32,000 nucleotides of DNA. It comes from Dubosiella newyorkensis. Its GTDB lineage: Bacteria > Bacillota_I > Bacilli_A > Erysipelotrichales > Erysipelotrichaceae. Shown here piece by piece: positions 2,614 to 19,207 of the stretch. The notes below the pieces were generated by a model that was not told the origin of the DNA, made no database searches, and was given only the letters and a program-made list of their open reading frames with translations. Position numbers and translations under genes: made by a program. The DNA lies in the NCBI RefSeq assembly GCF_001945605.1, contig NZ_MPKA01000053.1, positions 1 through 32,000 of the forward strand. The letters are read 5' to 3'. Position 1 is the stretch's first letter, and every line of letters begins with the position of its first letter.

Positions 2614-3288
2614 ATGAATCATTTAACCGACAAATTGATGGAAAAGATCGGCCCGTTCGCCGAAGTCGTTTCCACCAACAAGTATCTATGCTCTTTACGT
2701 GACGGATTCATGGTCGCCTTCCCGGCGACGATGTTCGCTTCGATCGCCATCATCAGTCAATATTTACCCGCAACATTTGGTCTTGAAGGAATCACTCCAC
2801 AATGGCTTCTTGATTTTCTCAACAATTTCTTTGGCCCGATCGGAAACGCGATCTTTGGAATCCTAGGCTTAGAGCTCGATCTAAGAGAGTGCTCAAATAA
2901 AGAAAAAGAACAATTGAAGGAAGCGATTGCCCACTATAAAAAAATGCAGCCTTTCCTCTTAAGCGTGACTTTATTTACCCATCCATATCATGAAGGTTAT
3001 CAAGCATGGACAGCCATTTCCGAATTCAATTCGATTTATTTAACTGGTTTTTATACGACTTTCGCCAAACTGAGAGCTTCGAGAAACGAGCGCGTCCAGC
3101 TTCCAAATATCGATCCAGCTTGCATGTATCAAATCGATGAGCAAACGATTTCGGGCGCCGTGATCGAGAAAACCGGAATCCGCGTTCCGCTTCGTTTCAA
3201 TGGGGCCAATGGCGAAATGGCTCGCTTAAAAGGAGACTATAGTTCAGCTTTGTGTTGGATGAAAAAGTTGGAGAACAGTAAGCGATGA
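2614..3288 (+). pseudogene. Chimeric remnant ORF: the first ~85 aa of a PTS lactose/cellobiose-family EIIC fused in frame to the last ~140 aa of a GH36 alpha-galactosidase.
   Basis: The N-terminus MNHLTDKLMEKIGPFAEVVSTNKYLCSLRDGFMVAFP...FFGPIGNAIFGILG matches the CelB/LicC-type EIIC start. From ~aa 86 the sequence (LELDL..EKEQLKEAIAHYKK...AWTAIS...LPNIDPACMYQI...SGAVIEKTGI...GDYSSALCWMKK) matches the C-terminal beta-domain pattern of AgaA/MelA-type GH36 enzymes. The junction is near 2865-2880. Confidence 0.65.
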
Positions 3289-4694
3289 GTGCCTTTTTAA
3301 AATTTCCTCCAAACTTTTTATGGGGAGCGGCGATGAGCGGTCCCCAAAGCGAAGGATGGCTTGGGAAACGGCATGAAAATATCATGGATACGTGGTATCG
3401 AATCTGTCGCAATGATTTTTATGAAGGCGTCGGTCCCGATGTGGCTAGTGATTTCCTGCACCATTTCGAGAATGATTTCCGTTTGATGAAAGAAATCGGA
3501 TTGAACTCGTTTCGAACGAGCATTCAATGAACTCGTTTGATCGCCAATCTTGAAACAGGCGAGCTCGATCCTGATGGAATCGCTTTCTATCAAGCGATGA
3601 TCCGAGCCGCTAAAGCGAATGAAATCAAGCTGATCTTCAATTTGCACCATTTTGATCTACCTACTGATCTTTTAGATCGATATGCTGGCTGGGAAAGCCG
3701 ACATGTGGTGGATTTGTTTGTAAAATACACCAAAACGGCTTTCCAGCTTTTTAAAGACGAGATCCACGAATGGACGACCTTCAATGAGCCAATGGTCATG
3801 ATCGATGATGGATATTTATATGGGTATCACTATCCGCACTATAAAAACGAAGGAAAAAGAGCTGTTCAAGTTTTATATCATATCGTGCTCGCCAACGCTT
3901 TAGTCACGCAAACTTATCATCAACTCGATCCTGAAGGAAAGATCGGGATTATCGTCAATGTGACACCCACCTACCCTCGCTCTGATCGAAAAGAAGATCA
4001 AGAAGCAGCCCGCTTCTTTGACTTGTTTCATTGGCGATCTTTTCTCGACGCGAGTATCCATGGCCATTTCCCCGATGAACTCGTAGAAATTTTAAGAAAA
4101 GATGGAGTCCTTTGGAAAGCGGAAGCCAAAGACGAATCGCTCTTATCTCTCAATCGTAGTGATTTTATAGGCATCAATTATTATCATCCAACAAGAGTCC
4201 AAGCCACAGAAGGCCAAATTTTTGAGAATTGGCTTCCCGACCAATATTATGCCCATTACGACTGGCCAGAGAAACGAGTCGATCCATATAAAGATTGGGA
4301 GATCTTTCCAAAAGCGCTCTACGACATCGCCAAAGAGATGACGAAGCGTTACCCTAAAACGCCATGGTTTGTTTCCGAAACAGGCATGGGAGTCCACGAT
4401 GAAGGTCGGTTTCGGAACAAAGACGGCGTGATCGAGGATCTATATCGAATCAACTTTTACAAAGAGCATCTATTTTGGCTGCACAAAGCGATCAAAGAAG
4501 GCGCCTCTTGTTTTGGATTCCACACATGGGCGGCTTTAGATTGCTGGAGCTGGAATAATGCGTATAAAAATCGATATGGTTTTATTGAAGTCGATCTGAA
4601 CGATCAAACGCGTACGATCAAGAAATCCGGTCGATGGTATCGCCAAGTCTCCTTGGAAAACGGTTTTGAAATAGAAGAAGATCCATTTGTGTAA
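3285..4694 (+). pseudogene. GH1 family (6-phospho-)beta-glucosidase interrupted by an in-frame TGA at a conserved Trp codon.
   Basis: ORF 3285..3530 (FPPNFLWGAAMSGPQSEG...FRTSIQ*) and ORF 3537..4694 (..TRLIANLETGELD...TFNEP...VSETG...) are in the same frame. The GH1 consensus here is SI.W.R, so the TGA at 3528-3530 sits where TGG is expected. The start overlaps the upstream stop (ATGA at 3285-3288). Confidence 0.8.
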
Positions 4695-12403: not shown

Positions 12404-13317
12404 AACCACATCCATAAGGAACTAAGAATAAATACGAATCCAAAAACAAGGATCCAAACGTTTTTGAAAGCCAATTGATAGACTTCTTTAGGAGAAGACC
12501 ATCGCCTTCTTTCTAGCGTAAATTCCTTTCGTTTAAGGATCAAATAAACGATTCCATAGAGGCACGCTAGCAAAATAACAAAAGGAGCGATCCACATGAA
12601 CCACGTGCTCATCGTCAAAAAAGAAATTGCGTTATTGAGCATATGAATCAAGATCACTAGCGTTAGCGAACGCGTCTTGACATAAAAGTAGCCGAGAACG
12701 CAGCCCATAAAGAAGGCAGGCAGTCCTTGGGCGAAATTCAAATGCATCATTCCAAAGCAAAGCGCGCTGAATACGATCGAAAACGTCTTTCCATACGCTT
12801 CAAAGCTCTTTAACAAAACGCCCCGGAAAAACAATTCTTCTATGGCTGGTCCTATAAGAACGATAGCCACAAATAAAATAAGATCTGAAAACAAGCTCCT
12901 CGAAACCCCAAAATCCGGCTGTTGGATCGGAGCGTTCAACCATTGATTGACCAAAGAAAAAATCAAAGAAAACGCAAATGAAGCAAGCGATAGGAGCGCG
13001 TATCCATTCCATACATCGCTCGCTTTGAATGGACGCTTAAGATCCTCTTTCCAAAAAAGCGGGTAGCGGCTTTTAAAAAACAAGATCGCGCAAAGGCCTG
13101 AAAGAATTGAAGAAAGCAAAAGGATCACGGCACTCAAAACAGGTTCGATAGAAAGCTGAAGATGCATCGGGAGCCAGGCGAGCAAAAATCCAAGACCCAA
13201 TGAACCAATCAAAGAGGCGCACAGCTGAACGAGCAAATAGATCCATAACGATTGCCCGGCTCGATCGATCTTTGAGCACAAACTTGTATAAGCAGTAAAA
13301 ACAGGTGGCTTATTCAT
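12394..13317 (-). CDS. CPBP-family (CAAX/Abi) intramembrane metalloprotease.
   Basis: Multi-TM protein with the motifs EELFFRG, FGMMH and HMLNN. The start at 13317 (MNKPPVF) makes an ATGA overlap with the upstream stop. Confidence 0.85.
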   Translation of the reverse strand: MNKPPVFTAYTSLCSKIDRAGQSLWIYLLVQLCASLIGSLGLGFLLAWLPMHLQLSIEPVLSAVILLLSSILSGLCAILFFKSRYPLFWKEDLKRPFKASDVWNGYALLSLASFAFSLIFSLVNQWLNAPIQQPDFGVSRSLFSDLILFVAIVLIGPAIEELFFRGVLLKSFEAYGKTFSIVFSALCFGMMHLNFAQGLPAFFMGCVLGYFYVKTRSLTLVILIHMLNNAISFLTMSTWFMWIAPFVILLACLYGIVYLILKRKEFTLERRRWSSPKEVYQLAFKNVWILVFGFVFILSSLWMWLGR

Positions 13318-14366: not shown

Positions 14367-15347
14367 TCACCTCGTATCCAATTTTCCAAATTCCCCTTCG
14401 TTAAATCCTGGACGATTAACTTGGTTTTTAAAAGGCTTGTGTTCCACGAGATTTTTCAAGTTGGTTTCCACGAGCTTAGCGAAGAGATCTTTTGTATAGC
14501 GAGAAGCGTATCCTCCCGAAATATGAGGGGTGATGTATACAGATTTTTCGTTCCATAAGCTAGAATGAGGAGGTAGCGGCTCTTCCTCAAAAACATCCAG
14601 AACCATCGCCCGGATCTTTTGCTTGCGCATCACTTCCTCTAATAAACTCGTTTTTACAAATTTTCCACGTCCAACATTGACAAAGATCGCATGGCTTGGC
14701 ATGAGATCAAACATTTCCGCTTGAAAAAAATCGTCAGTATCGGTATTGCTCGGCAAACAATTGATCACAAGATCGGCTTCTGGCAAATATGTTCGAATAT
14801 TGACTAGCTGATCAATCCGATCAAACCCTTCTTTTTCCACTTTCTTTTTTCTAAGACCAATCGTCCTGCAGCCAAAGGCTTTTAAGCGGCTGGCCAATGT
14901 AGAGCCTACATCCCCGACACCTAATATGAGCGCGTTTTTATAGCGCAAGGTTTCTATAGGAATGCGTGTCGTGTTCCACTGGTTTTGGGCTTGAAAGCTC
15001 TTATATTGGTCCGCTTCCCGATATATCGATAAGATCGCTTGGATCACATATTCTGCGATCGTGAATCCAAATGTTCCTGATGAATTGCATAAAACGGCTT
15101 TATGGATCCAACGATTCCAGCCTTCATAACCGGCACTCGGTAATTGAACAAGTTCCAATGATTCGATCGAATCGATTTGTTCTCGCAAAGATTCAGGAAT
15201 GATCCCAATGATCGCGCTGGCCTTTGAAAAATAGGGCATCACATCCTCCTCGGTATCAAAATGCAATTCCAATGTATCCGAGACTTCTCGGAGTTTTTGT
15301 TTTTGGGATTCGTTGAAGGTCGTAAAACAAACCACATGTTTCTTCAC
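14367..15347 (-). CDS. D-isomer-specific 2-hydroxyacid dehydrogenase family protein (NAD-binding).
   Basis: GVGDVGSTLASRL (GxGxxG), NVGRG and the catalytic-His region ITPHISG. GTG start with a GAAGGAA RBS. Confidence 0.85.
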   Translation of the reverse strand: MKKHVVCFTTFNESQKQKLREVSDTLELHFDTEEDVMPYFSKASAIIGIIPESLREQIDSIESLELVQLPSAGYEGWNRWIHKAVLCNSSGTFGFTIAEYVIQAILSIYREADQYKSFQAQNQWNTTRIPIETLRYKNALILGVGDVGSTLASRLKAFGCRTIGLRKKKVEKEGFDRIDQLVNIRTYLPEADLVINCLPSNTDTDDFFQAEMFDLMPSHAIFVNVGRGKFVKTSLLEEVMRKQKIRAMVLDVFEEEPLPPHSSLWNEKSVYITPHISGGYASRYTKDLFAKLVETNLKNLVEHKPFKNQVNRPGFNEGEFGKLDTR

Positions 15348-15458
15348 AATGAATTCCTTCTTTCTATTCTTCCATTGTATCGCTTTTTTGTATTTTGTTT
15401 TGGTAAAGATTACAGAAGTGTTAGGAATTTCTTAATAAATACCCTTTATACTGAGGAT

Positions 15459-15758
15459 ATGACAGATTCAAATTGGACTCTTTTACCTTTTGACTTTCGG
15501 TATGATCTAAAAAACCATCACTTATATCAGCTTGATCAGCGGATCTTTCTTACCCCTACAGAACAGAGGCTGTTCGATATGCTTATAAAAAATCGTGGCC
15601 GCATCGTTCGTCGAGAAGAGCTGACTCTCCATTTATGGAATACAGAACAATTTATCGGAGAAGGCACTTTGACAACATCGATGTCTCGGCTGCGTAAGAA
15701 GATCGGAAATCCCCATTTAATCAAAACGATAAAAGGGATCGGCTATTGGATCCCATGA
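15459..15758 (+). CDS. Stand-alone OmpR/PhoB-type winged-helix DNA-binding protein (Trans_reg_C only, no receiver domain), ~99 aa.
   Basis: LTPTEQRLFDMLIKNRGRIVRREELTLHLW...TLTTSMSRLRKKIG...IKTIKGIGYWI is the effector-domain pattern. The ATG at 15459 follows GAGGA (15453-15457). The longer track ORF from 15261 runs antisense through the dehydrogenase gene. Confidence 0.7.
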   Translation: MTDSNWTLLPFDFRYDLKNHHLYQLDQRIFLTPTEQRLFDMLIKNRGRIVRREELTLHLWNTEQFIGEGTLTTSMSRLRKKIGNPHLIKTIKGIGYWIP

Positions 15759-15785
15759 AAAAGGTCCGGAAATTCCGGACCTTTG
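15757..15785. terminator. Bidirectional intrinsic terminator.
   Basis: GGTCCGG (15763-15769) pairs with CCGGACC (15775-15781), flanked by AAAA and TTT, between convergent genes. Confidence 0.8.
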
Positions 15786-15802
15786 ATCTATCATGCTTTT
15801 TA

Positions 15803-16063
15803 TTAAAGAGCTTTTTTCATTGCTTCTAGAACAGCGATCTTGTCTTGTTCTACAGCTGCGTCTAAAGTTTTTCCTTCTTTTTCGTCTTTTTCAGCCCAAC
15901 CTTTGATTACACCGATACGATCATCGATACGATCTGCTAAAGTTTGACCATATTTTTTTGCATCATCATCGAAATGTGCTTCGAATTCATCAACAACGGC
16001 TTTTCCGTAGTTGCTATCTCCTGCTGCTGCTCTTAATTTAGCGATTGTTTCTTCTTTAGTCAT
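15803..16063 (-). CDS. Small acidic helical protein of unknown function, 86 aa (paralog 1 of a tandem pair).
   Basis: ORF MTKEETIAKL...DRIDDRIGVIKGW...KIAVLEAMKKAL, roughly 40% identical by eye to the neighbouring ORF. There is no SD within 20 nt of the ATG. Confidence 0.7.
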   Translation of the reverse strand: MTKEETIAKLRAAAGDSNYGKAVVDEFEAHFDDDAKKYGQTLADRIDDRIGVIKGWAEKDEKEGKTLDAAVEQDKIAVLEAMKKAL

Positions 16064-16150
16064 AGTGTTTTTTTGTTTACCATTTTTAGGGTTCTTTCTT
16101 CGGCAATTTGGTAAACATCCTTCTTTCTTTTTTCAGTTGTTATGCCGAAA
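16064..16150 (-). promoter_or_regulatory. Structured 5' leader 1: interleaved helices S1 and S2 (pseudoknot topology) plus a displaced SD-like block.
   Basis: Minus-strand order is S1-5' TTCGGCA (16149-16143), AGAAAGAAGG (16128-16119), S2-5' TGTTTACCA (16117-16109), S1-3' TGCCGAA (16105-16099) and S2-3' TGGTAAACA (16082-16074), then 10 nt to the ATG. Confidence 0.55.
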
Positions 16151-16157
16151 CCCGATT

Positions 16158-16185
16158 TTTATATTGTGTTATTGTGTTCGATCAA
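16158..16185 (-). promoter_or_regulatory. Candidate promoter of paralog 1 (TTGATC-N16-TATAAA).
   Basis: -35 at 16185-16180 and -10 at 16163-16158 (minus strand). The position is homologous to the paralog-2 promoter. Confidence 0.4.
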
Positions 16186-16186
16186 C

Positions 16187-16447
16187 TTATGCGATTGCTT
16201 TCAAAGCTTTTTCTACGATCGCAATCTTAGCGGCTTCTTCATCAGCTTTTGCTGCGTCGCCTTCTTCACGATGTTTCTTTTCCCAACCTTTAAGTGTTCC
16301 AAGACGATCATCTAGACGATCTTTTGCATTTTGCGCATATTTTCCTTCTTCACCGAAGTTAGCTACTAAATCAGCGATTACTTCATCACCATATGCAGAT
16401 CCACCGATCGCGTCAGTCAATACTTTTTTGAATTCATCTTTTGTCAT
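16187..16447 (-). CDS. Small acidic helical protein of unknown function, 86 aa (paralog 2).
   Basis: The start is set at the second ATG (16447, MTKDEFKKVL...), which gives exactly the same length (261 nt) and N-terminus MTK(D/E)E as paralog 1. The track ORF begins 12 nt upstream at 16459. Confidence 0.7.
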   Translation of the reverse strand: MTKDEFKKVLTDAIGGSAYGDEVIADLVANFGEEGKYAQNAKDRLDDRLGTLKGWEKKHREEGDAAKADEEAAKIAIVEKALKAIA

Positions 16448-16531
16448 AATTTGTTGCATGCTTTAATGAGGGGAATTACTGGGGGCATCCATAAAAGCAT
16501 ACTGCCTTCTTTCTATCTTCTTTATATGCCC
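16448..16531 (-). promoter_or_regulatory. Structured 5' leader 2: the same S1/S2 architecture as leader 1 built from different sequences.
   Basis: Minus-strand order is S1-5' GGGCAT (16531-16526), AGAAAGAAGG (16514-16505), S2-5' ATGCTTT (16500-16494), S1-3' ATGCCC (16488-16483) and S2-3' AAAGCAT (16464-16458), then 10 nt to the ATG at 16447. Confidence 0.55.
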
Positions 16532-16551
16532 TATCCTTTATTTACAGTATC

Positions 16552-16580
16552 AATATACCCTTTCGCATAGAGATCATCAA
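16552..16580 (-). promoter_or_regulatory. Candidate promoter of paralog 2 (TTGATG-N17-TATATT).
   Basis: -35 at 16580-16575 and -10 at 16557-16552 on the minus strand. Confidence 0.45.
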
Positions 16581-16785
16581 CTTTGATGCCCGTAAATGTA
16601 TTCTTTTTATTGTACATTTCAAAAAAAAAAGAAATCTGCTTATTTTCCTTTATATAAAGACTATTTCTTAGATTTCACAAGGAGATTCAAATCTTGATTG
16701 TTATAAAACGTGCACATTCTCTACTTGTTTTCTAAAAAAAATGCGTTATTATAATTGGCTTTTTTCAATACTCCTGCCTTGAGGA

Positions 16786-16826
16786 TAAAAAAAGAACTAG
16801 CACAGGATCGCTCCTATGTTAGTTCT
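16786..16826 (-). terminator. Intrinsic terminator downstream of the bile-salt hydrolase gene.
   Basis: AGAACTA (16793-16799) pairs with TAGTTCT (16820-16826), with an inner AGGA/TCCT stem, followed on the minus strand by T7 (plus-strand A-run 16786-16792). Confidence 0.6.
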
Positions 16827-16839
16827 ATCTCGTTTTTAC

Positions 16840-17823
16840 TTAGTTTTGGATATTGACGTTTAAATCACGAAGAACTGGATAAGAGATCAAAGAAGAACCT
16901 TCCAGGTTTTCTTTTTTCATATCCACCGCGTTGATGTTTTGGTTGTAATACGTCGTGTAATAGAAGATTCCCGAATCCGTATCTCCAACACTTGTATATT
17001 GAGTGATCTCGTATTCGCCTGGATGTATTTCGGCTTCCCCATTGACCTGCTGCACATTCGTAAGGATATGGAAATATTCACCTACATTTTTTTCAATACT
17101 GTTTGGATCACAGAATGAATTCAGACGTGTAAAGGCGGCACGAACAAACCGGCTTACTGAATCGACTCCGCCAGGAAGACCGGTCGATCCCATGCCTCTG
17201 GAATAAAGATCGATGTCTTTGGCATCTTTCGCGAAGCGTGGGGTAATGATCTGTCCTGTCAATTGAGAATAGATCGAGATGTTTTTGCATTGCCAATCAA
17301 AATCTGGGCAGTTTGTCAAAACATCGTATGGATCATCATAAACACGGAAACCTTTTTCTTTGGTTTGTTCAACAACGATACTTTCGTTTTTATCGCCAAT
17401 CAGAAAATGAAGCGGTGAATTCGGTTGTTCTGCCGAGAAATGAACATCGCAAAGATTGACATTTTCTAGAAGCTTCCGAGCTTCTTCCACTGTAGAAGCT
17501 TGTCCTAAAATATATGGGATGAACTCGAAAGGCGCGATATTTTTCTTTCCTTCTTGAACAGGCGCATAATAGGCCAATCCCGCAAAGGCAGTACCAGCCA
17601 TTCCTAAACCGGCGTCGTTGATCGCTTCAAAATACAATGGATAATCGTTTTGGATCAATCCCATCCCGATCAAGGCATGATGATTTTTGATCTCGCTTCC
17701 ATCCTTCATTTTGAATACATAATTATGGGGTGTGATGACCACATCAACTGGATAATTGATTTCTAAATCAAGGTTCCGGCCAAATAAATGGCAGCCATTT
17801 GTATAGTTAACAGCAGTACACAT
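16840..17823 (-). CDS. bsh: Choloylglycine (bile-salt) hydrolase, Ntn-hydrolase, linear amide C-N hydrolase family.
   Basis: The N-terminal MCTAV places the nucleophile Cys at position 2. FGRNLDLE and the overall length (327 aa) are typical of BSH/penicillin V acylase family enzymes. Confidence 0.85.
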   Translation of the reverse strand: MCTAVNYTNGCHLFGRNLDLEINYPVDVVITPHNYVFKMKDGSEIKNHHALIGMGLIQNDYPLYFEAINDAGLGMAGTAFAGLAYYAPVQEGKKNIAPFEFIPYILGQASTVEEARKLLENVNLCDVHFSAEQPNSPLHFLIGDKNESIVVEQTKEKGFRVYDDPYDVLTNCPDFDWQCKNISIYSQLTGQIITPRFAKDAKDIDLYSRGMGSTGLPGGVDSVSRFVRAAFTRLNSFCDPNSIEKNVGEYFHILTNVQQVNGEAEIHPGEYEITQYTSVGDTDSGIFYYTTYYNQNINAVDMKKENLEGSSLISYPVLRDLNVNIQN

Positions 17824-18319: not shown

Positions 18320-19207
18320 TTACGGTAGCGGACGACAAGTTTTTTCAACGAACTCTTTGCTTAGAACTTTTGGGCCCGAAACCTTGAAGTAGATCGTATA
18401 CGATTTTGAATCTTTTTTCACGACCTCGCCTTTGCCGATCGTAGGATGAACGATCCATTCGCCGATCGCGAACGCTTTTTTCTTTTCCGTTTTTGGGAGC
18501 ACAAGCGAAAGCGAAGTATCTTCTACTTTCGTTTGTTTTTGATCTTCTACCTTCAAGATCGGCGAATAATACATCGCATCGACTAGATCAGAAAATGAAT
18601 GAATATTTTTCAATACGCCCGCCTGGGCCATCGATACATATATACAGCAGGCAAGAGCTTGATTTCCTCCTTTGGGTTCTTCCGCACATTCGATATCCGT
18701 AAACGCGTTGAACTCCAGCAGCTTTTGTGCCAATAAAGGATGTTCTTTGATCGCTCTAAAATAAAGCCATGTGTAGAAGGCGGTATCCGGATTGGCTGGG
18801 TATTGCTTGTTTTCAAGGTTAAAATGGACGACTTTTCCGACTTTTTGTTTTCGAGGATCCCGCTTGGCTTCTAAAGCCGATGCGCCGAGCAAATCATAAA
18901 AGGGGCCTCCATGTTCATAAACTTTGGATGCTTGGTAAATATTCTCGATGGAAAAGGCCTTCTGCAAAAAAGGAAGGCGAAGCGTTAAATTGAATGGCGA
19001 AAGCGCGATCCCGACTTCTTGATCGGATTTGGTCGAGATTTCCAGAACTTTCATCGTGGGGTATCGTTTTAAAAACGCGGCATGGAGCGCTTCCACATTC
19101 TTTTTCTTTTGACTGGCGGATTGGCCAGGAAAAAACTCAAATTCGATTTTTGCTTTTTTATAATAAGGTCTTTGAGGCGTGACCATAAATACGATTCTTG
19201 TTGTCAT
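18320..19207 (-). CDS. Uncharacterised protein: unrecognised ~215-aa N-terminal domain plus a C-terminal PcrA/UvrD-like Tudor-type motif.
   Basis: 295-aa ORF. The C-terminus FAIGEWIVHPTIGKGEVVKKDSKSYTIYFKVSGPKVLSKEF fits the G-x-V-x-H-x-x-fG-x-G-x-V ... F ... G-x-K-x-L pattern of helicase C-terminal Tudor domains. I cannot assign the N-terminal region to a family. Confidence 0.6.
   Translation of the reverse strand: MTTRIVFMVTPQRPYYKKAKIEFEFFPGQSASQKKKNVEALHAAFLKRYPTMKVLEISTKSDQEVGIALSPFNLTLRLPFLQKAFSIENIYQASKVYEHGGPFYDLLGASALEAKRDPRKQKVGKVVHFNLENKQYPANPDTAFYTWLYFRAIKEHPLLAQKLLEFNAFTDIECAEEPKGGNQALACCIYVSMAQAGVLKNIHSFSDLVDAMYYSPILKVEDQKQTKVEDTSLSLVLPKTEKKKAFAIGEWIVHPTIGKGEVVKKDSKSYTIYFKVSGPKVLSKEFVEKTCRPLP

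Follow-up and report, generated by a model that had tools for sequence, protein, structure and literature searches.

Tandem FRAT-87 genes of Dubosiella newyorkensis carry leaders that may form a hairpin-split ribosome binding site

Two FRAT-87 genes and the layout of their leaders

The window, that is the whole stretch of DNA analysed here, comprises 32,000 nucleotides (nt) of the mouse-gut bacterium Dubosiella newyorkensis (assembly GCF_001945605.1, contig NZ_MPKA01000053.1, positions 1 to 32,000). On its minus strand two genes of 86 codons each, gene A and gene B, lie in tandem, and each follows a leader of the same construction, leader 2 standing before gene A and leader 1 before gene B. 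Both products belong to the FRAT-87 family: against the NCBIfam model NF045479, which has a curated threshold of 50 bits for full-length matches, they score 134.6 bits (gene A) and 111.1 bits (gene B) at model positions 1-85 of 86, and the two proteins are 42% identical to each other.

A first-pass annotation of this DNA, made from the letters alone, had described the two leaders as duplicates that are built from two helices, S1 and S2, around a displaced Shine-Dalgarno (SD) block, with a loop of 37 nt and a 10-nt spacer. Every one of these positions could be reproduced on the minus strand, and the two leaders are indeed homologous duplicates (Table 1). In both, the loop of 37 nt that S1 closes encloses the block AGAAAGAAGG, and the 5' arm of S2 starts from loop position 26. 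The gap between the 3' arm of S1 and the 3' arm of S2 is 16 nt in leader 1 and 18 nt in leader 2, whereas the distance from the 3' arm of S2, in the limits set by the first-pass annotation, to the ATG is 10 nt in both, and the genes start with ATGAC(T/A)AAAGA. Leader 1 has an extra pairing option, GGGTT (16153-16149) with AACCC (16093-16089), and its nested minimum free energy (MFE) fold uses this helix together with S1.

Table 1. Features of the two leaders and of the FRAT-87 genes that follow them, with positions in the window.
Feature	Position	Strand	Details	Source
Leader 1, S1 5' arm	16143..16149	minus	TTCGGCA	read from sequence
Leader 1, displaced SD block	16119..16128	minus	AGAAAGAAGG, 55 nt before AUG	
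Leader 1, S2 5' arm	16109..16117	minus	TGTTTACCA (= UGUUUACCA), 1 nt after SD block, loop position 26	
Leader 1, S1 3' arm	16099..16105	minus	TGCCGAA	
Leader 1, S2 3' arm	16074..16082	minus	TGGTAAACA (= UGGUAAACA), then 10 unpaired nt, ATG at 16063	
Leader 2, S1 5' arm	16526..16531	minus	GGGCAT, identical in L050 and L188	
Leader 2, displaced SD block	16505..16514	minus	AGAAAGAAGG, 57 nt before AUG	
Leader 2, S2 5' arm	16494..16502	minus	GUAUGCUUU (ATGCTTT 16500-16494, a U.G pair and a G-C pair)	
Leader 2, S1 3' arm	16483..16488	minus	ATGCCC, within S2 loop	
Leader 2, S2 3' arm	16456..16464	minus	AAAGCAUGC (includes AAAGCAT 16464-16458), then 8 unpaired nt, AUG	
Leader 2, upstream open reading frame	16444..16500	minus	MLLWMPPVIPLIKACNKL and stop, 18 codons, ATG 4 nt after SD block, TGA in the ATGA of the gene	
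Gene A, FRAT-87 protein	16187..16447	minus	86 aa, starts ATGACAAAAGAT	NF045479, E 1.2e-39
Gene B, FRAT-87 paralog	15803..16063	minus	86 aa	NF045479, E 2.5e-32
Leader 2, promoter-like site	16552..16580	minus	TTGATG-17 nt-TATATT	promoter scan
Leader 1, weak promoter-like site	16158..16185	minus	TTGATC-16 nt-TATAAA, overlaps end of gene A	read from sequence
Palindrome after gene B	15760..15784	both	perfect 12-bp AAAGGTCCGGAA/TTCCGGACCTTT, then T-run	repeat search (I2)

A displaced Shine-Dalgarno block

Duplexes between the anti-SD tail GAUCACCUCCUUUCU of the 16S rRNA and the last 20 nt before the two ATGs reach only -2.9 and -0.5 kcal/mol at best, in agreement with the initial remark that neither ATG has an SD nearby. 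The distal block AGAAAGAAGG pairs with the anti-SD at -8.5 kcal/mol and matches AGAAAGGAGG, the complement of the 16S tail, at 9 of 10 positions, the same count as had been reported at first pass; for other genes of the window, plausible starts lie at about -9 to -15 kcal/mol. The identical 10-mer is found about 1 kb away (15356-15365, minus strand), 8 nt before the GTG of a 2-hydroxyacid dehydrogenase gene, a normal SD position, and AGAAAGAAGG is thus an ordinary, functional SD sequence in this genome. A version with one mismatch, ACAAAGAAGG, is located 10 nt before an ATG at 13317.

In the leaders the block ends 55-57 nt before the AUG, beyond functional distance, and no proximal SD takes its place. 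It is mostly unpaired in the nested ensembles, with a P(paired) of 0.09-0.30.

Relatives with and without the displaced block

The comparison set consisted of 31 genome loci and about 30 further assemblies and yielded about 120 copies of FRAT-87 genes, usually in tandem arrays of two to four; many copies recur from one assembly to another. The peptide patterns of the genome scan missed gene B-type proteins, and orthologs of gene B were reached through protein searches and the neighbouring bile-salt hydrolase gene. In most relatives a GGAG-type SD precedes the ATG by 7-12 nt, as in aaagaaaagGGAGGtcatgcaatcATG (read by eye), the exceptions including a weaker AGAAGAG in L180-L183; the FRAT-87 family is normally SD-dependent. 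Within this set the displaced-SD layout is confined to the two leaders of the window and to one further lineage, the Logan assemblies L050, L188 and L189, in which a single ortholog of gene B (88% identical; P0054 in L050) lies between the same hydrolase and regulator genes. No FRAT gene was found at the hydrolase locus of other, more distant Dubosiella species (L190-L194), where the regulator directly follows the hydrolase, and a metagenome scan with the pattern AAAGAAGGN{45,72}ATGACWAARGA was unspecific, as 0 of the 120 loci that it returned encode FRAT-87.

The L050-type leader reads GGGCAT, a 37-nt loop with AGAAAGAAGG-CA-GTTTACC, ATGCCC, 21 nt, GGTAAAC, 10 nt and ATG. It shares S1 with leader 2 and S2 with leader 1; elsewhere it follows leader 2, and its first codons are ATGACA as in gene A. 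It is probably orthologous to leader 2 and would have been joined to gene B through loss of gene A and leader 1, in which case leader 2 of the window has since replaced both arms of S2. Three substitutions separate the L050 leader from those of L188 and L189, all of them outside S1, S2 and the SD block. Across the four leaders that were compared, leaders 1 and 2 and those of L050 and L188, AGAAAGAAGG is invariant whereas its flanks are divergent.

Helix S2 is tied to the SD block and the start codon

A gap of 1-2 nt separates helix S2 from the SD block and one of 8-10 nt separates it from the AUG; the helix has 7-9 base pairs (bp), or up to 12 bp in leader 2. Dinucleotide shuffles were searched for perfect stems of at least the observed length, with 0-5 nt between SD block and stem and 6-12 nt between stem and AUG; of 20000 shuffles each, 0 (leader 1), 86 (leader 2) and 50 (L050) contained one. 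An unprompted repeat search of positions 15700-16700 recovered both S2 helices (I9, with 9 nt and 100% complementarity, and I3) and lengthened that of leader 2 to AUGCUUUUAUG/CAUUAAAGCAU with one U.U mismatch. No other copies of the insert sequence, which would bear on the idea of a mobile repeat, were found by that search within the same 1 kb.

Anchored on the outer G-C pair, all 7 of the 7 shared pairs are intact in 4 of 4 leaders and none is broken. Relative to the other three, leader 2 carries three double compensatory changes (U-A to A-U, A-U to G-C and C-G to U-A) and one further change, U-A to U.G, and in controls with slid partners the pairing falls from 100% to 28-43% of cells. The first-pass annotation had claimed compensatory changes in both helices from the window alone and had named orthologous leaders as a check; for S2 the claim stands, with the three double changes and with the pairing kept in the second lineage (L050 and L188), whereas for S1 it is an overstatement: the sequences are not independent, and a single pair is truly compensatory. 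When S2 is folded, the unpaired nucleotides from SD block to AUG sum to 11, 10, 12 and 12 across the leaders, close to the 11-14 nt of the first estimate, with an S2 loop of 26-35 nt, and the helix alone is stable at -6.5 to -8.8 kcal/mol. Judged by the position-specific shuffle test, the covariation and the nearly constant spacers, S2 is an RNA helix under selection, in a register set by both the SD block and the start codon.

An intrinsic terminator on either strand was also considered for S2 and rejected: loops of 26-35 nt and A/U-rich stems speak against one, a U-run is absent from the minus-strand RNA, and on the plus strand the run of pyrimidines is simply what lies opposite the SD block.

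Helix S1 and a possible pseudoknot

The MAFFT alignment misregisters S1 of leader 1, and the S1 counts were taken from a table anchored on the core instead. The core, GGCA/TGCC, is unchanged in all leaders. Just outside it, leader 1 has a C-G pair where the others have G-C, which amounts to one compensatory change, and the helix is extended on opposite sides, outward by 2-3 pairs in leader 1 and inward by 1 pair in the others. S1 alone is stable (-6.8 to -8.3 kcal/mol). Crossing stems of its length arose in 184 of 5000 shuffles (4%) for leader 1, in 1352 of 5000 (27%) for leader 2 and in 23% for L050.

In leaders 1 and 2, L050 and L188 the arms follow one another in the order S1-5', S2-5', S1-3', S2-3' and share no bases. 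The loops of the resulting pseudoknot would be about 25, 1-8 and 14-20 nt long for stems of 6-9 bp, ample by general pseudoknot geometry, and a putative H-type pseudoknot is feasible in steric terms. The nested MFE folds choose S1 in both leaders of the window and S2 in L050. What had been put forward at first pass as an H-type pseudoknot is thus borne out in its arm order and is tentative as a structure, S1 having an invariant 4-bp core, one covarying pair and a frequency in shuffles that does not set it beyond chance.

A candidate hairpin-split ribosome binding site

We propose that each leader is a hairpin-split ribosome binding site (RBS), the best-supported reading, for which we consider the chances to be evenly balanced. 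In each leader the only usable SD, AGAAAGAAGG, would be the one that sits 55-57 nt before the AUG; folding of S2 would loop out 44-49 nt and leave 10-12 single-stranded nt, plus the helix junction, between the SD-anti-SD duplex and the start codon, so that a 30S subunit docked on the distal SD could then reach the AUG. S1 would join part of the S2 loop to a stretch close to the mRNA 5' end, tentatively as an H-type pseudoknot, and might compact the looped-out RNA, stabilise S2 or protect the 5' end. Use of the distal SD by the ribosome, formation of S2 in vivo and any role of S1 are what we infer from the sequences.

The split, or 'accommodated', initiation regions of phage T4 genes 38 and 25 were reportedly described by Nivinskas et al. 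in 1999 and by Malys and Nivinskas in 2009. To our knowledge no hairpin-split RBS has been characterised outside phage T4, and a narrow literature search returned no further examples. In T4 the hairpin shortens the distance between SD and AUG from 22 to 5 nt in gene 38 and from 27 to 11 nt in gene 25, and the split arrangement is limited to a narrow clade (PMC3014915); the parallel with gene 38 drawn at first pass is, with these spacings, an apt one. We take the T4 25/38-type split RBS, with a functional spacing of 5-11 nt, as a mechanistic class and not as a homologous family. The Dubosiella leaders resemble it in that the SD is too far from the start and an intervening hairpin would shorten the spacing, here from 55-61 to 10-12 nt at the upper end of the T4 range, and also in that the arrangement is found in a narrow clade whose relatives have an ordinary RBS and within which the hairpin is conserved. 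Unlike the T4 elements, they belong to a bacterial chromosome (Erysipelotrichaceae) and not to a phage, share no sequence homology with them and are known from sequence alone. The looped-out part of 44-49 nt with its 26-35-nt loop is about three times larger, the S2 loop holds a segment that is able to pair 5' of the SD and may form a pseudoknot, and the element occurs twice in tandem on paralogous genes.

Several observations weigh against this reading. The residual 10-12 nt together with the width of the helix lie at the long end of what SD-dependent initiation tolerates, while the same SD stands at 8 nt elsewhere, and a looped-out element about three times the size of that of T4 must fit the 30S platform. 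The leader sample consists of four leaders that represent three independent versions from two closely related lineages. S1 combines an invariant core with only one covarying pair and, on its own, is weak and does not go beyond chance. The nested MFE z-scores of the window leaders, -1.8 and +0.4, are unremarkable, and folding energy alone thus gives no support. Furthermore, the promoter of leader 1 is weak, and an upstream open reading frame (ORF) that ends at AUGA could explain the absent proximal SD without S2.

Alternative explanations

This upstream ORF of leader 2 was overlooked in the first-pass annotation and provides a competing explanation for the missing proximal SD: in a relay, the distal SD would drive a leader ORF whose UGA overlaps the AUG of the gene (AUGA), the gene would be translated by reinitiation, and S2 would be incidental or a modulator that is melted by the ribosome. 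The spacing of 4 nt between SD block and ORF start in leader 2 and the stop within the TGA of ATGA fit such a relay, and L050 and L188 keep MPPVFPLDYGKQ[VL]IL and stop (MPPVFPL...) in frame to the same TGA, with a length difference from leader 2 of exactly 3 nt, so that, as in leader-peptide coupling of the AUGA type, the upstream ORF ends in the UGA of AUGA in all three leaders. That TGA, however, is automatic in any gene starting with ATGAC. After MPPV[IF]P the three versions use CTC, TTA and CTA for Leu, only synonymous changes, but the conserved part of the peptide coincides with the 3' arm of S1 and its flank, and conservation at the level of RNA explains it equally well. The ORF is not conserved in leader 1, where the ATG abuts the SD (0 nt), the ORF MFTKLPKKEP stops 22 nt before the AUG and only another mini-ORF, MVNKKTL, which has no SD, extends to AUGA. 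L050 and L188 have their first in-frame start too far out, at 17 nt from the SD, and starts at 0, 4 and 17 nt are badly spaced for leader-peptide coupling. Such coupling needs no covarying helix. The relay leaves the three double compensatory changes in S2 unexplained, and we regard it as unlikely.

The leaders might instead be regulatory switches in which S1, S2 and a conserved CCC(C)U tract form alternative folds, or folds stabilised by a ligand, a protein or temperature, that toggle the split RBS. Both crossing helices can form without shared bases, yet one of the two, S1, is statistically weak. A CCCU tract lies between the 3' arms of S1 and S2 in every leader and could, by inspection, pair with AGG/AAGG of the SD block, but this pairing has 3-4 bp and is altered between L050 and L188. 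The segment ATGCCCCCAGTA(A/T)TTCCC is 19/20 identical between leader 2 and L050, beyond what S1 needs, and the S1-closed loop is 37 nt in all versions despite internal indels; too few sequences are at hand, however, to detect conserved unpaired positions of the kind that make up a pocket. With no match to an Rfam family even at E up to 10, and no candidate ligand for a leader of FRAT-87, which has no Pfam domain and no significant match in the PDB, a switch of this kind appears improbable. We consider it distinctly unlikely that a pseudoknot of S1 and S2 acts as a conditional switch, with temperature, a metabolite or FRAT-87 itself deciding on S2 closure and assembly of the split RBS; if true, folding would activate translation, the reverse of pseudoknot riboswitches that sequester the SD, and the class of RNA would be an undescribed one.

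It is doubtful, too, that initiation is independent of an SD and takes place on an A/U-rich, weakly structured region before the AUG, with AGAAAGAAGG unused and S2 serving mRNA stability or processing. The 10 nt before each AUG are A-rich (AAAAAACACU and AACAAAUU), but the FRAT-87 family and this genome otherwise rely on the SD, and the 10-mer is invariant in four leaders among divergent flanks. 5'-terminal stem-loops stabilise mRNAs in Firmicutes, S1 lies at or near the predicted 5' end, and many relatives have small hairpins just 5' of the SD; a stability hairpin, however, has no need of the register that fixes S2 to the SD block and the AUG.

Complementarity by chance, without function, in a duplicated and A/T-rich intergenic region would agree with the frequency of S1-type stems in shuffles, the unremarkable z-scores and spacings that are equal through inheritance from the duplication, but it is highly improbable in view of the position-specific shuffle test of S2 and its three double compensatory changes with no broken pair.

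Comparison with other RNA classes

A scan of the whole window with Rfam 15 (4227 models) gave no match at the gathering score, and at E up to 10 positions 15700-16900 gave noise only, all far below the cut-offs; no known riboswitch had been recognised at first pass either, and the scan of the leaders upholds that. The preQ1-II, SAM-II, SAM-V, fluoride and guanidine-III riboswitches are likewise small elements of crossing helices directly 5' of the start codon that govern the access of the ribosome. In those riboswitches, however, the SD is sequestered in a helix, whereas in the Dubosiella leaders it would be unpaired in the first loop and folding would be activating; moreover, the Dubosiella leaders match no Rfam model and have no evident ligand pocket.

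The leader of Escherichia coli rpsO (S15) also has a pseudoknot that spans the translation initiation region, a feature that is tentative in the Dubosiella leaders. The rpsO pseudoknot leaves the RBS accessible and binds the product of its own gene, and the spacing between SD and AUG is normal. The sole match to the Rfam S15 leader in the window lies inside the coding sequence of gene A with an E-value of 0.41 and was rejected as noise. From its sequence features, the Dubosiella element is best filed as a much larger, possibly pseudoknotted variant of the T4 hairpin-split RBS that has been duplicated in a narrow bacterial lineage.

Transcription signals

The promoter-like site upstream of leader 2 (Table 1) is of the sigma-70 kind and has a counterpart in L050, TTGAAA-17-TATAGT, at the equivalent place, and the predicted transcription start site (TSS) of leader 2 would lie about 14 nt upstream of the 5' arm of S1. 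The region contains 3 promoter-like sites against 3.2 expected from shuffles, which makes this weak evidence. The site of leader 1 was passed over by the promoter scan as its second hexamer lacks the final T. Since there is no terminator between genes A and B, read-through from gene A into leader 1 is likely, and the palindrome that follows gene B is, by its sequence, likely a bidirectional terminator of the A-B transcript. No bacterial transcriptome or TSS data for D. newyorkensis turned up in a literature search.

Other leaders of FRAT-87 genes

A third type of leader, L3, which precedes a third D. newyorkensis copy and the D. muris copies, was considered as a further case of a split RBS and rejected: the spacers sum to 16 nt, pairing is predicted for the distal GAAAGG of the D. 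newyorkensis copy, and a weak proximal AGGU is present. The L3 hairpin, GCATTCC/GGAATGT, is unchanged between the two species whereas its 34-nt loop differs at about 9 positions (L032 about 1395-1500; L004 about 2895-3000 and 3610-3715; L177 about 1395-1500).

Ileibacterium-like relatives have a small hairpin directly before the real SD, with an SD-like 5' arm and an anti-SD-like 3' arm (AAGAAGG-ctagt-CCTTC-c-AGGAG; L020 about 2960-3000, L180 about 1460-1500, L184 about 1250-1285 and 1655-1691). It may be a decoy or a stabiliser, and the AGAAAGAAGG block of the window might have descended from the 5' arm of such a hairpin. A separate motif, ATTCCG-N(about 22)-(C)GGAAGGA followed by GTATGAT, stands about 55-95 nt 5' of many A-type FRAT genes of Allobaculum and relatives (L001-L003, L006-L012, L044-L049) and is absent from the window leaders; from its sequence it looks like a site of a shared regulator or an unusual promoter.

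The FRAT-87 genes and their surroundings

The FRAT-87 proteins are an uncharacterised family, encoded by tandemly amplified genes in mouse-gut Erysipelotrichaceae. The product of gene A is 100% identical to the NCBI entry 'FRAT-87 protein [Dubosiella newyorkensis]', no Pfam domain was detected in the products of genes A and B, and the literature search on 'FRAT-87' gave no paper. An AlphaFold2 model of the gene A product has four helices with a predicted local distance difference test (pLDDT) score of 96.9, and a fold search of the PDB with this model gave no significant match (best E-value 1.3).

In minus-strand order, the A-B pair is flanked on one side by genes for a DarT1-associated NADAR antitoxin, a MerR regulator and a choloylglycine (bile-salt) hydrolase, and on the other by those for a short winged-helix regulator, the 2-hydroxyacid dehydrogenase and a GNAT acetyltransferase. 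The antitoxin gene (18320-19207, minus strand; PF22397, E 9e-75) is two genes from the hydrolase. The ORF that adjoins gene B (15261-15758, plus strand) encodes just the winged-helix domain that OmpR-type regulators carry at the C-terminus (Trans_reg_C, residues 93-162) and no receiver domain; it is called at 59-109 aa in other assemblies and is kept beside the hydrolase in all Dubosiella loci examined. Elsewhere, FRAT-87 genes usually form tandem arrays directly 3' of a gene for a MiaB-like radical-SAM methylthiotransferase (UPF0004, Radical_SAM and TRAM domains), with 2-4 copies in L013, L015-L017, L019, L020, L026, L040 and L180-L187.

The third FRAT-87 gene of D. newyorkensis (L032-L038, gene 1501-1761) lies elsewhere, in the order DeoR, NanE, a 71-aa ORF, FRAT, DtxR-like and U32 peptidase. 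Its protein is identical to the product of gene A, its DNA differs at 9 positions, all synonymous, and the similarity to gene A (16187-16447) is bounded exactly by the ATG and the stop codon, so that copying or conversion involved the coding sequence but not the leader. In L037 (ENA contig ERZ17752214) the upstream context of this third copy (NanE, the 71-aa ORF and the L3 leader) is fused to the downstream context of the window (leader 1, gene B and the regulator), a junction that is likely an assembly collapse across near-identical coding sequences or a real recombinant. In L051 (Logan ERR14688386; genes 158-301 and 252-419) gene B is split into ORFs of 47 and 55 aa through a frameshift or an assembly error, and leader 1 is identical to that of the window.

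Implications

If the proposal is confirmed, the Dubosiella leaders would contain a chromosomal bacterial RBS that is assembled by RNA folding, with an insert larger than both T4 inserts and maybe pseudoknotted. This would bear on the amount of RNA that the 30S platform can hold between the SD duplex and the P site, and would call for caution with programs for gene calling or RBS prediction whose scoring stops 20 nt upstream of the start codon. It would also represent a compact design for translation control that depends on folding. For the FRAT-87 family, an unusual translation signal on the copies beside the bile-salt hydrolase gene may point to special regulation.

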